Assembly (NCBI GenBank): GCA_048885925.1
Contig: JBHLLG010000028.1
Coordinates: 1 to 34,521 of the forward strand
DNA from: Candidatus Hermodarchaeota archaeon
GTDB taxonomy: Archaea > Asgardarchaeota > Lokiarchaeia > Sigyniarchaeales > SOKP01
Direction: 5' to 3'
Length of the DNA: 34,521 nt
Shown here: one piece after another, positions 4,534-6,599 of the stretch
Layout of the letters: the number at the start of each line of letters is the position of its first letter
How positions within the stretch are numbered: position 1 is the first letter of the stretch
Translations under genes and position numbers: made by a program
Notes under the pieces: model-generated
The model's input: only the letters and a program-made list of their open reading frames with translations
The model's database searches: none
What the model was told of the DNA's origin: nothing

Positions 4534-6599
4534 ATGCCTGATAAGAATGGTTATGATGCAGAGGATATTAAAGTACTAAAGGGCCTTGAAGGCGTAAACT
4601 CAACTTTATAAATTATGGAGAATTTGCGCGTTTAGCGCTGAGTCGCCAGAGACTTAGGCCCGCAATGTATATTGGTGATCGAGGGAAGAAAGGACTCCAT
4701 CATCTAATTTTTGAAGTTTTAGATAATTCTGTTGATGAAGCGATTGGCGGATTTGCAGATGAGATAAAAATAACTCTTTACAAAAATAATTCAGTTCAAA
4801 TTTTTGATAACGGGCGAGGAATTCCTATTGACATTCATCCAGAATTTCAAAAACCAGCTCTTGAAGTAATTATGGAACATTTACATTCTGGAGGTAAGTT
4901 TGATAAAAAAAGCTATAAAATCTCAGGTGGATTACATGGAGTTGGTTTGTCTGTTGTAAATGCATTAACAGAATGGCTGGAAGTAGAAGTATGTCGTGAT
5001 GGACTATGTTACATACAAAAATTTTCGAGAGGTAAAAAATCATCAGAGCCAATTGTAAAAGAAATTAATTCAAAGGAGACTTATACAAAAATACAATTTT
5101 ATCCTGATAGCGAGATTTTTGAATTTGAACCAAATGAACAAATTTTTAATGCCCATACTATTAGTAATAGAACACGAGAGCTTGCCTTTCTTACTCCTCA
5201 TACTCGATTTGAAATTCATAATAAATTTAATGATGAAAAAGAAGAATTTCATTATGAAGGGGGTCTTAAAGAATTTATTTCGTTTCTAAACAAGGATAAG
5301 CAACCACTCCATAATGATATTATTTATGTAAATGATTCAGCTCAAGATGATGATGGTTCAATTGTCTATGTTGAGTTAGGTATGCAATATAACCAAGGAT
5401 ATCAATCTAATATTCTAACTTATGCAAATACAATCAATACTCTTGAAGGGGGAGTACATCTAACTGGATTTAAATCAGCTTTAACTAGGGTTTTTAATTC
5501 TTATATTGAAAATTTCATGGAGAAAAAATATAAAGACCATGTTTTAAGTGGAAGCGATACAAGAGAAGGTTTGTCAGCAGTTATTTCAGTTAAACTCCCT
5601 GAACCTCAATTTGAAAGTCAAACTAAAATCAAGCTAGGAAATCCTGAGATCAGACAAATTGTAAGCCAAATTGTTACGGATAGATTAATGCAATATTTAG
5701 AAGAAAATCCGGATACCGCCAAAAAAATTATTTTAAAAAATATTAATGCAAAAATAGCTAGAGAAGCAGCTCAGAAGGCAAGAGCGTTAATACGGAGAAA
5801 ATCTGCTTTAGATGGAGCTAGAATGCCGGGAAAATTAGCTGATTGCTCATCAAATGATCCAGAGAAAGTAGAACTTTTCATTGTAGAGGGTGATTCAGCA
5901 GGTGGTCCTGCAAAACAAGGGAGAGATAGAACTTATCAAGCTATTCTACCAATTAGAGGTAAAATTCTTAATGTTGAAAAAGCAAGGATAGATAAGGTTT
6001 TGCAAAACAATGAAATTCAGGCTATTATAAAAGCGCTTGGAGTAGGGTTCCAAGAGGCTAGTTCAACAAATGGAAATAATGTAGAATCTGAAGAAAACGG
6101 TGAGGAAATAGAAGAGACTTTTGATTTAAGTAAACTAAGGTATCATAAAGTTTTAATCATGTGTGATAGTGACATTGATGGAAGACACATTGAGACACTT
6201 TTACTTACATTTTTCTTTAGATATTTAAGACCCTTAATAGATGAGGGCCATCTATATATTGCAGTTGCACCTTTATATAAGTTATCTTATAAAAATAACA
6301 AGATCTACGTATACTCTGATAAGGAAAAAGAGGAAAAAATCAAAGAATTAAAAAATAAGTATAAAATAAAAAATATTGATTCAATCAAGGTTCAGCGTTA
6401 TAAGGGTTTAGGGGAGATGAATGCAGATGAACTTTATGATACAACAATGAATCGAGAAACAAGAAGATTAAAACTAGTTACTTATGAAGACTATATTGAA
6501 AATGACTTACTTTTCAGCAAATTAATGGGTAAAGAAGTAAAGGCACGTAAGAAGTTTATTATCAGTAATTTTGATAAAGTTAGAATGTTAGATATTTAA
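4534..6599 (+). CDS. gyrB: DNA gyrase subunit B, split gene: exon 1 4534-4596, exon 2 4650-6599 (670 aa if spliced)
   Basis: Exon 1 encodes [21 protein letters not shown]. Exon 2, in another frame, encodes RLRPAMYIG followed by [50 protein letters not shown] and QRYKGLGEM. The ORF track starts at 4665 and misses the conserved N-terminal arm. Confidence 0.95.
4597..4649 (+). other. Candidate 53-nt archaeal bulge-helix-bulge/loop (BHB/BHL) pre-mRNA intron
   Basis: 4-bp central helix GGCG(4591-4594)/CGCC(4644-4647); 3-nt bulge UAA(4595-4597); intron stem ACUCA(4598-4602)/UGAGU(4639-4643); AGA(4648-4650) opening an internal loop; exon stem GGGCCU(4581-4586)/AGGCCC(4656-4661). Cuts after the second bulge nucleotide on each strand restore frame and motif. 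Confidence 0.85.

Follow-up and report, generated by a model that had tools for sequence, protein, structure and literature searches.

A Probable tRNA-Type Intron in the DNA Gyrase B Gene of an Asgard Archaeon

Organization of the gyrB–gyrA Locus

The gene for DNA gyrase subunit B (gyrB) of a Candidatus Hermodarchaeota archaeon, an Asgard archaeon of the order Sigyniarchaeales, is interrupted by 53 nucleotides (nt) that, as judged from comparative analysis and RNA folding, very probably constitute a relaxed bulge-helix-bulge (BHB) intron of the tRNA type, excised by the splicing endonuclease EndA and the ligase RtcB. The window, i.e., the whole stretch of DNA analyzed, is the complete contig C28 (JBHLLG010000028.1, 34,521 nt) of assembly GCA_048885925.1, referred to below as genome G000, which comprises 3.9 Mb in 181 contigs with 29% G+C and is rated 95% complete. 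ATG 4534 starts an open reading frame (ORF) of 25 codons, consisting of 21 gyrB residues (ending in GLEGV) and the residues NSTL, which is closed by TAA 4609-4611, and the GyrB reading is picked up in a different frame at AGA 4650 (RLRPAMYIG...), from where it runs for 649 codons to the stop at 6599. Taking out 4597-4649 joins both parts into one ORF. The exon 2 protein matches the NCBIfam profile for DNA gyrase subunit B, NF004189, with an E value of 5.6e-257 at profile positions 25-641 of 641, and its match to TIGR01059 begins at profile position 16 of 639; the positions left without a match (1-24 and 1-15, respectively) represent the piece encoded by exon 1. An earlier sequence-only reading of this stretch had placed the start, the stop, and the resumption of the gene at the same coordinates, which are borne out by the ORFs and their translation, and had noted that removal of these 53 nt restores the GyrB consensus, in agreement with the uninterrupted orthologues.

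The gyrA gene follows directly as an intact ORF of 815 residues, which lies above the cut-offs of both NCBIfam equivalogs (NF004043, 1047.9 bits; TIGR01063, 1023.3 bits). Decay of the operon, which would speak against a functional intron, was looked for; exon 2 and gyrA are intact, gyrB is present once in genome G000, and the gyrB–gyrA operon is not decaying. Approximately 24 nt 5′ of the gyrB ATG lies an A/T-rich box, CCTTTACAAAAA, which is also present in the intron-bearing relatives and may serve as a TATA element; in that case, the gyrB mRNA would have a short leader or none at all, and the intron would lie at most ~65 nt from its 5′ end.

Occurrence of the Insert

A single sequence with a frame-breaking insert and a stop codon resembles a dead gene or a misassembly, and the sequence-only reading had left it to DNA data to establish that the insert is genomic. 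Positions 4597-4649 are spanned, with 0-1 mismatches, by DNA contigs of four sequencing runs from four independent studies (X1, 4300-4744; X3, 4447-4912; X4, 4451-4780; X13, 4447-4652 and 4623-4733), and one run also contains an uninterrupted relative with 27 bases in place of 80 window bases, which is exactly 53 nt shorter. Among the 40 nearest genomes, which provided 30 gyrB loci, five genes are interrupted at the same codon, all within one genus (G000 itself, G015, G006, G023, and G004), 24 are uninterrupted with a continuous GL[ED]G[VI]-R-K/R-R-P motif, and one was not settled by the motif. A degenerate intron pattern searched against 185,579 species genomes gave six archaeal matches, every one of them gyrB at the same site, in metagenome-assembled genomes (MAGs) labelled Promethearchaeota, Promethearchaeia, ‘Odinarchaeota’ or ‘uncultured archaeon’, and also nine chance matches in G+C-rich bacteria; one additional intron-bearing gyrB was obtained from metagenome contigs.

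Furthermore, a covariance model built from nine copies of the intron has a single match in genome G000, at gyrB (E 1.3e-17), and none elsewhere in that genome. Within a sample of 150 genomes of the order, 13 have a match (10 of 52 in genus g1, own genome included, and 3 of 42 in genus g14), the other genera and families of the sample have none, and each match is single-copy, in gyrB, and at the same codon. The total amounts to 14 distinct intron-bearing gyrB genes, one of them from a one-contig genome. Twelve of these genes have an intron of 53 nt; that of G085 measures 52 nt and that of G058 33 nt. In a search for a mobile origin, the intron pattern was not found in viral contigs.

Coding Constraint and Reading Frame

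Variable sites at the three codon positions number 2/0/14 in the last 15 codons of exon 1 and 8/4/14 in the first 15 codons of exon 2 (14 genes each), and 11/10/13 by phase in the 12 introns of 53 nt, which thus have no coding periodicity. This distribution indicates that both exons are under protein-level selection, which is strongly purifying in exon 1. A pseudogene or an assembly artefact is scarcely conceivable in view of the spanning contigs, the 14 carriers, the intact 649-codon exon 2 and gyrA, the single copy of gyrB, and the coding-type substitutions in both exons, and is refuted as far as the sequence data reach.

The same data bear on the possibility that splicing does not occur and that GyrB is instead made from Met 4665 without its N-terminal arm, the 25-codon ORF being a separate peptide or a remnant. 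An ATG is indeed located 5 codons into exon 2 and opens an intact ORF of 644 codons; however, this residue is the conserved Met of RP.MYIG, a motif that uninterrupted genes have too, and the arm is fused to the body in all uninterrupted relatives. The five codons preceding Met 4665 encode R-x-R-P-A in all 14 genes, with arginine codons alternating between AGA/AGG and CGT/CGA/CGC, and preservation of these residues through synonymous replacements, e.g., AGA to CGT, argues against initiation at Met 4665. With exon 1 under strong purifying selection and the intron-encoded tail of the short ORF not conserved, translation from Met 4665 alone is considered very unlikely.

In 13 of the 14 genes, the insert causes a frame shift, and introns of 53, 52, and 33 nt set exon 2 in three frame relations to exon 1, each of which is corrected exactly by excision; thus, no single frameshift could serve. 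This pertains to translational recoding, in which ribosomes would bypass or frameshift over the insert. In gene 60 of phage T4, which encodes a topoisomerase subunit, ribosomes hop over 50 nt, for which identical take-off and landing codons and a stop directly after the take-off site are needed. The gyrB insert is likewise a non-coding gap of ~50 nt, with a hairpin inside and a stop shortly past the take-off region, in the gene of a type II topoisomerase subunit. Unlike gene 60, it has no matched flanking codons (GTA/GTT before the gap vs. CAG/TAA/TAG/CAA/TAT before exon 2), its stop lies 2-5 codons downstream rather than adjacent, and inserts of three lengths would demand three different frame corrections, which makes recoding highly improbable. 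An intein was rejected as well, since the insert is not an in-frame translated insertion, the frame being shifted as stated and in-frame stops being present in all 14 genes. The stop, always 2-5 codons past the 5′ splice site, occupies an identical alignment column in 12 genes; it may have been selected for, as a means of aborting the translation of unspliced mRNA, or be simply part of an A/U-rich hairpin loop.

RNA Fold and Predicted Cleavage Sites

RNAfold applied to positions 4575-4666 yields a minimum free energy (MFE) structure of -29.2 kcal/mol, compared with -21.1 ± 3.1 for shuffled sequences (z -2.63), and 2 of 200 shuffles fold as well. All helices claimed by the sequence-only reading are contained in it, i.e., the outer exon-exon helix h (GGGCCU/AGGCCC), the central helix H (GGCG/CGCC), and, behind the UAA bulge, the intron stem h′ (ACUCA/UGAGU; Table 1), and RNAalifold, applied to nine sequences, found the same h, H, and h′ unprompted. 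In the alignment of 14 sequences, the 4 base pairs (bp) of H are paired in 98.2% of cells, with G-C/G-U and C-G/U-G exchanges; h′ is paired in 95.7%, its pair 4601-4640 being C-G in seven sequences, U-A in five, G-C in one, and U-G in one; and the RNAalifold-predicted 4-bp core of h is paired in 94.6%, with a shifted register in some relatives. The inner hairpin at 4626-4638 is 100% paired in the 13 sequences having it and shows one double change from G-C to A-U. The 33-nt intron of G058 lacks this G+C-rich hairpin but has retained H, the two unpaired triplets, and an h′ of 4 bp, suggesting that the inner hairpin is probably needless for recognition and that the conserved core is the BHB part.

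Over the whole structure, 92.9% of cells are paired, vs. 35-41% after sliding the partners by 1-3 columns, and the covariation score is 0.227, vs. 0.155 ± 0.013 in shuffles (reached by 0 of 500; six pairs have changes on both sides), although these slide and shuffle controls overstate the support somewhat, the structure being derived from the same, related sequences. The carriers, the uninterrupted majority of congeners, and the compensatory changes in H and h′ accord with the presence, absence, and covariation that the sequence-only reading had proposed to look for in aligned Asgard gyrB 5′ ends. Composition-preserving shuffles of the window hairpin reproduce H (4 bp) and h′ (5 bp) at the junction-fixed register in 43 of 200,000 cases; the structure therefore exceeds chance.

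For the cbf5 intron, the available sections of PMC2738675 describe cleavage by EndA between the second and third bulge residues. Cutting 2 nt after each strand of H yields the junction of uninterrupted orthologues in all 14 gyrB introns, and in G006, where differing flanking bases forbid sliding of the boundary, the cut rule gives the exact junction of uninterrupted genes. The window copy does not conform to the strict hBHBh′ motif: its 3′ site lies in a 4 × 8 internal loop (4648-4655 vs. 4587-4590) and not in a closed 3-nt bulge, helix h closing this loop only 5 nt further on, and G006 is, by eye in the alignment, near-canonical, with a 3-nt bulge plus one A·G mismatch. By its predicted fold, the window copy is thus a relaxed HBh′ or bulge-helix-loop (BHL) form of the BHB and not the canonical hBHBh′. 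Neither Rfam, at the gathering score, nor ARAGORN found a match in the window.

Table 1. Features of the gyrB–gyrA locus (window coordinates) and of two further candidate introns in genome G000
Feature	Coordinates	Strand	Remarks
A/T-rich box CCTTTACAAAAA	4505..4516	+	possible TATA element
gyrB exon 1	4534..4596	+	21 codons; N-terminal arm of GyrB
Outer exon-exon helix h, 5′ strand GGGCCU	4581..4586	+	pairs with 4656-4661; MFE
Central helix H, 5′ strand GGCG	4591..4594	+	in exon 1; pairs with CGCC 4644-4647
5′ bulge UAA, 3 nt	4595..4597	+	unpaired in MFE and RNAalifold; predicted EndA cut between 4596 and 4597
gyrB intron (predicted)	4597..4649	+	53 nt; 11 other copies of this length align with it without gaps
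Intron stem h′, 5′ strand ACUCA	4598..4602	+	pairs with UGAGU 4639-4643
In-frame stop TAA	4609..4611	+	closes the 25-codon ORF of unspliced mRNA
G+C-rich inner hairpin (GCGC / loop / GCGC)	4626..4638	+	MFE has two inner hairpins
Central helix H, 3′ strand CGCC	4644..4647	+	last paired bases of the intron; MFE, RNAalifold
3′ splice site AG/A	4648..4650	+	predicted cut between 4649 and 4650, 2 nt past H
gyrB exon 2	4650..6599	+	649 codons plus stop; begins RLRPAMYIG
Outer helix h, 3′ strand AGGCCC	4656..4661	+	in exon 2; MFE, RNAalifold
gyrA	6638..9085	+	intact, directly 3′ of gyrB; 815-residue ORF
EF-2/EF-G-family GTPase intron (candidate)	G000:C2 56880..56851 (L064:2852-2881)	-	30 nt, in frame with TAA
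JAB/MPN (JAMM) gene intron (candidate)	G000:C15 18569..18539 (L065:1540-1570)	-	31 nt

Endonuclease and Ligase of the Host Genome

Genome G000 encodes one EndA of 198 residues at G000:C22:7621-8214 (PF01974, 101.7 bits; TIGR00324 endA, 112 bits). Its closest relatives of solved structure are 3p1z_B (E 5.5e-38) and 3ajv_B (E 1.4e-36), which we take to be A. pernix EndA, an assignment that agrees with PMC3241643. The alignment with 3p1z_B contains two short gaps, none of them in the loop region, and places K56-P-R58 opposite K44-P-R46. According to the accessible portion of PMC3241643, an EndA of narrow specificity becomes able to cleave BHL substrates on transplantation of the ‘Crenarchaea-specific loop’, to which K44 and R46 belong and in which Lys44 is required for this gain, and Asgard EndA is described as (αβ)2 with an L1 loop in an excerpt of PMC5829648. 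The aligned residues indicate that the EndA catalytic subunit of genome G000 carries the broad-specificity loop lysine. RtcB is present as well (PF01139, E 4.8e-171; G000:C12:26362-27669). The RtcB open frame comprises 519 residues, vs. the 426 positions of the profile.

ARAGORN flagged 19 of the 32 tRNA genes of genome G000 as intron-containing, indicating that the splicing system is heavily used. Among these tRNA introns are long or oddly placed ones (e.g., 146, 1335, and 103 nt). With no more than 32 tRNAs detected, further ones may be hidden by introns.

Further Interrupted Genes in Genome G000

Both strands of the genome were scanned for a helix H of 4 bp, a 3-nt bulge, and an h′ of at least 5 bp, with the cut 2 nt past each strand of H, an open exon 1 frame with a stop shortly past the 5′ site, and a long frame for exon 2. 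This strict scan produced 202 raw matches and, after an MFE filter, 29, among which gyrB was recovered. A conserved motif, judged by eye from the junction peptides, is restored in only three of the 29 (gyrB, a gene of the EF-2 family, and a JAMM gene). Four others, on C11, C80, C1, and C18, were rejected as uninterrupted genes read in another frame; by eye from their motifs, these are presumably glutamate-dehydrogenase-like, radical-SAM-like, IlvD-like, and formiminotransferase-like, respectively. Relaxed scans of the genome gave no further convincing case and were fragile, as in one of them gyrB dropped out at the MFE filter and JAMM at the coding-score filter. Thus gyrB is not the sole interrupted gene in genome G000, a point missed by the sequence-only reading, and the motifs restored point to at least three such genes, which is a lower bound and not a census. 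The cbf5 gene (TruB_N, G000:C12:40850-41191) is uninterrupted in this genome.

In the EF-2/EF-G-family GTPase gene, exon 1 runs from ATG L064:3070 and exon 2 from L064:2851 down to 790. The insert lies between ...QMTDSD and DEEQERGITI, i.e., between the G1 and G2 motifs, and splits the Pfam GTP_EFTU match in two, exon 1 covering profile positions 2-35 and exon 2 positions 49-187. Of the 23 congeneric genomes in which the gene was matched, the own genome among them, 8 have the insert, and MTDSD-DEEQ is continuous in the others. Its hairpin consists of an H of UCAG/CUGA, a 3-nt bulge, and a 9-bp h′, is 96.7% paired in seven sequences with one double change, and is reproduced by 1 of 200,000 shuffles.

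The insert of the JAMM gene lies between ...GWWHSHPGF and KVMMSHIDIQ, inside the metal-binding motif, with Pfam JAB positions 5-97 in exon 1. Excision restores the spacing H-x-H-x7-S-x2-D, which we take to be the JAMM motif. An insert of 29-31 nt is found at this codon in four genomes (G000, G001, G004, and G005), and other congeners are uninterrupted. Helix H covaries (GGCU/AGCU, GACU/AGUU, and GGUU/AACU), and a clean h′ is seen in the own copy only. From their restored motifs and predicted hairpins, the EF-2-family and JAMM genes look like the gyrB case.

Proposed Processing of gyrB mRNA

The conserved site, the selection on the exons, the covarying fold, the EndA loop, and RtcB support the BHB/BHL reading that had been put forward from the sequence alone. 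In this mechanism, the pre-mRNA would fold such that the end of exon 1 (GGCG) and the CGCC of the intron form the 4-bp helix H, followed on the 5′ side by the UAA bulge and h′, with the 3′ site placed 2 nt beyond H in the loop closed by the exon-exon helix. EndA would cut after the second unpaired base behind each strand of H, i.e., between 4596 and 4597 and between 4649 and 4650, and RtcB would ligate the exons, the 53-nt intron being probably circularized. The product would be an mRNA for a 670-residue GyrB with the N-terminal arm from exon 1, and unspliced mRNA would yield only a 25-residue peptide owing to the stop at 4609. On the evidence of the frames and the predicted structure, the essential gyrB mRNA most likely needs splicing before translation.

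Five points weigh against this mechanism. Firstly, with the closed 3′ bulge missing in the window copy, cleavage depends on a broad-specificity EndA. Secondly, an EndA β subunit was not found in the genome, rated 95% complete, by PF01974 at E <= 10, by PF02778 (same gene only) or by tblastn with the α subunit. Thirdly, the 20 sequencing runs in eight studies that contain the locus include no RNA run, so that the spliced junction and the circle are unseen; next to no sequence of the locus is present in two RNA runs belonging to one of these studies. Fourthly, only 21 codons separate the intron from the start of a perhaps leaderless mRNA, where a leading ribosome could compete with folding. Finally, the fold controls are somewhat lenient, as described above.

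The insert might also be removed from the RNA by machinery other than EndA and RtcB, such as another structure-specific endonuclease or an unknown ribozyme activity residing in the hairpin. Excision is strongly implied, yet the enzymes are deduced from the fold alone, the 3′ site is non-canonical in the window copy, and h′ is not evident in three of the four JAMM-gene introns. As for ribozyme activity, the window has no Rfam match and the inserts measure 33-53 nt, which, to our knowledge, is too small for any known self-splicing intron; self-splicing group I and group II introns, whose ribozyme cores comprise hundreds of nucleotides, were rejected on the same grounds, the Rfam covariance models finding no such core. 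Furthermore, in the 14 gyrB introns and in the EF-2-family and JAMM introns, the cuts set by uninterrupted orthologues lie exactly 2 nt past each strand of H, which is the EndA rule described for cbf5 in the part of PMC2738675 available. Other machinery is therefore considered unlikely, and removal by EndA and RtcB is preferred.

Relation to Known Systems

The sequence-only reading had named crenarchaeal cbf5 as the classic protein-coding case, which is confirmed by the passages available from PMC7714728 and PMC2738675, and had known of no report in gyrB or in Asgard mRNAs. Among open-access full texts, with subscription journals and supplements outside the scope, no report was found of a BHB intron in gyrB, EF-2, a JAMM gene or any Asgard mRNA. 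The authors of the 2020 Haloferax study state, in the portion available, that cbf5 was the only archaeal mRNA BHB intron reported before their own case (PMC7714728), and the only mRNA precedents that this literature appears to offer are crenarchaeal cbf5 and one Haloferax 5′ untranslated region (UTR).

The closest parallel is found in Crenarchaeota, in the intron of cbf5 (Watanabe 2002; Yoshinari 2006; Yokobori 2009, PMC2738675). As far as the accessible text of PMC2738675 describes it, that intron is likewise short, has an often relaxed BHB-like motif in the coding sequence of a highly conserved codon region, is patchy among relatives in a pattern read as gain and loss, and is tied to a hetero-oligomeric EndA of broad specificity. 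The gyrB case differs in its host gene, in its Asgard/Promethearchaeota lineage, and in the location of the intron 21 codons from the start; moreover, spliced cDNAs and in vitro cleavage exist for cbf5, whereas the gyrB case is known from DNA alone. The other precedent is from Haloferax volcanii, whose EndA is of a different architecture. In HVO_1309 of this organism, an mRNA is likewise a substrate of the archaeal splicing endonuclease, as demonstrated by EndA knock-down and in vitro cleavage, but the intron lies in the 5′ UTR and the reading frame is unbroken, according to the available part of Schwarz et al. (2020, PMC7714728). The non-canonical BHB introns of Asgard tRNA genes are described in excerpts of PMC11291895 and of the preprint 10.64898/2026.10.13.758758 as having been gained independently many times and as having relaxed motifs, one half of which is contributed by the exon; the presumed enzymes are the same as for the gyrB intron, but the hosts are tRNA genes, and protein-coding hosts or mRNA are unmentioned in those excerpts.

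A further likeness is to the unconventional cytoplasmic HAC1/XBP1 splicing of eukaryotes, in which a small mRNA intron is cut at stem-loops by a protein endonuclease and the exons are joined by a tRNA ligase, RtcB in animals; the frame is thereby changed, and protein production is gated. HAC1/XBP1 splicing is stress-regulated and relies on Ire1 and a pair of 7-nt loops. Unlike this system, the enzyme proposed for gyrB is of the Sen/EndA type, and regulation is known only on the HAC1/XBP1 side. The role of RtcB in XBP1-type splicing is noted in the portion available of PMC8718801 and, through its reference list, in PMC5829648.

If the gyrB intron is processed as proposed, protein-gene splicing extends to Asgard archaea, genome G000 adding two further cases, and such introns are tolerated in essential replication and translation genes. 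As a wider proposal, which is tentative and rather less than probable, this Asgard family may carry a small evolving set of EndA/RtcB-spliced introns in essential protein genes (gyrB, EF-2-family, and JAMM/MPN), each in the most conserved motif of its gene and, as its presence in some species and absence from close relatives would imply, being gained, lost or exchanged at present. Since unspliced mRNAs would terminate within a few codons, the output of gyrase and elongation factor would then be gated by tRNA-splicing capacity, and the system would amount to a prokaryotic equivalent of HAC1/XBP1-type mRNA splicing, found among the nearest relatives that eukaryotes are known to have. The presence/absence series would be useful for studying how BHB introns arrive and depart, which, for Asgard tRNA introns, is called the central open problem in the available part of the preprint 10.64898/2026.10.13.758758, and the gyrB intron offers a concrete substrate for the specificity of Asgard EndA. 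Gene callers would split or shorten such genes, and the gyrase, EF-2, and MPN proteins of the group are probably mis-annotated in public MAGs.

Evolution of the gyrB 5′ Region

A GyrB tree was calculated from 470 residues, counted from the RP.MY motif of exon 2 onward, only supported sister pairs being used; L016 (no motif) and L038, L049, and L059 (fewer than 400 residues) were left out, and L020 (KIEGIRK), labelled intron-bearing in the tree, is uninterrupted. Intron-bearing and uninterrupted genes are interleaved, and three sister pairs differ in intron state, i.e., G006/G009 (100/97), G015/G011 (100/99), and G075/G003 (100/98). G006 and G009 share 90% identity from exon 2 on and no blastn similarity in the 1.4 kb upstream, which suggests that upstream region, exon 1, and intron were exchanged together as a 5′ cassette, not that a simple deletion occurred. 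Most uninterrupted congeners share a 5′ cassette of their own, with a different upstream region, a longer N-terminus (...PSNQDSYDADD...), and a folP-like gene immediately 5′ of gyrB. The intron-type upstream region is retained in the uninterrupted G002 and G017, which fits precise loss. From these comparisons, the distribution seems to reflect precise losses mixed with recombinational replacement of the 5′ end.

In the window, a folP-like (pterin-binding) gene is located at 95-967, followed by a minus-strand ORF of 506 residues at 1237-2757, which we take, by eye from its motif alone, to be zinc carboxypeptidase-like. A second copy of the folP 3′ end lies at 2827-3102 (69-residue ORF 2884-3093), and folP stands directly 5′ of gyrB in congeners whose gyrB is uninterrupted. 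By its sequence, this interval looks like an insertion with a duplicated target.

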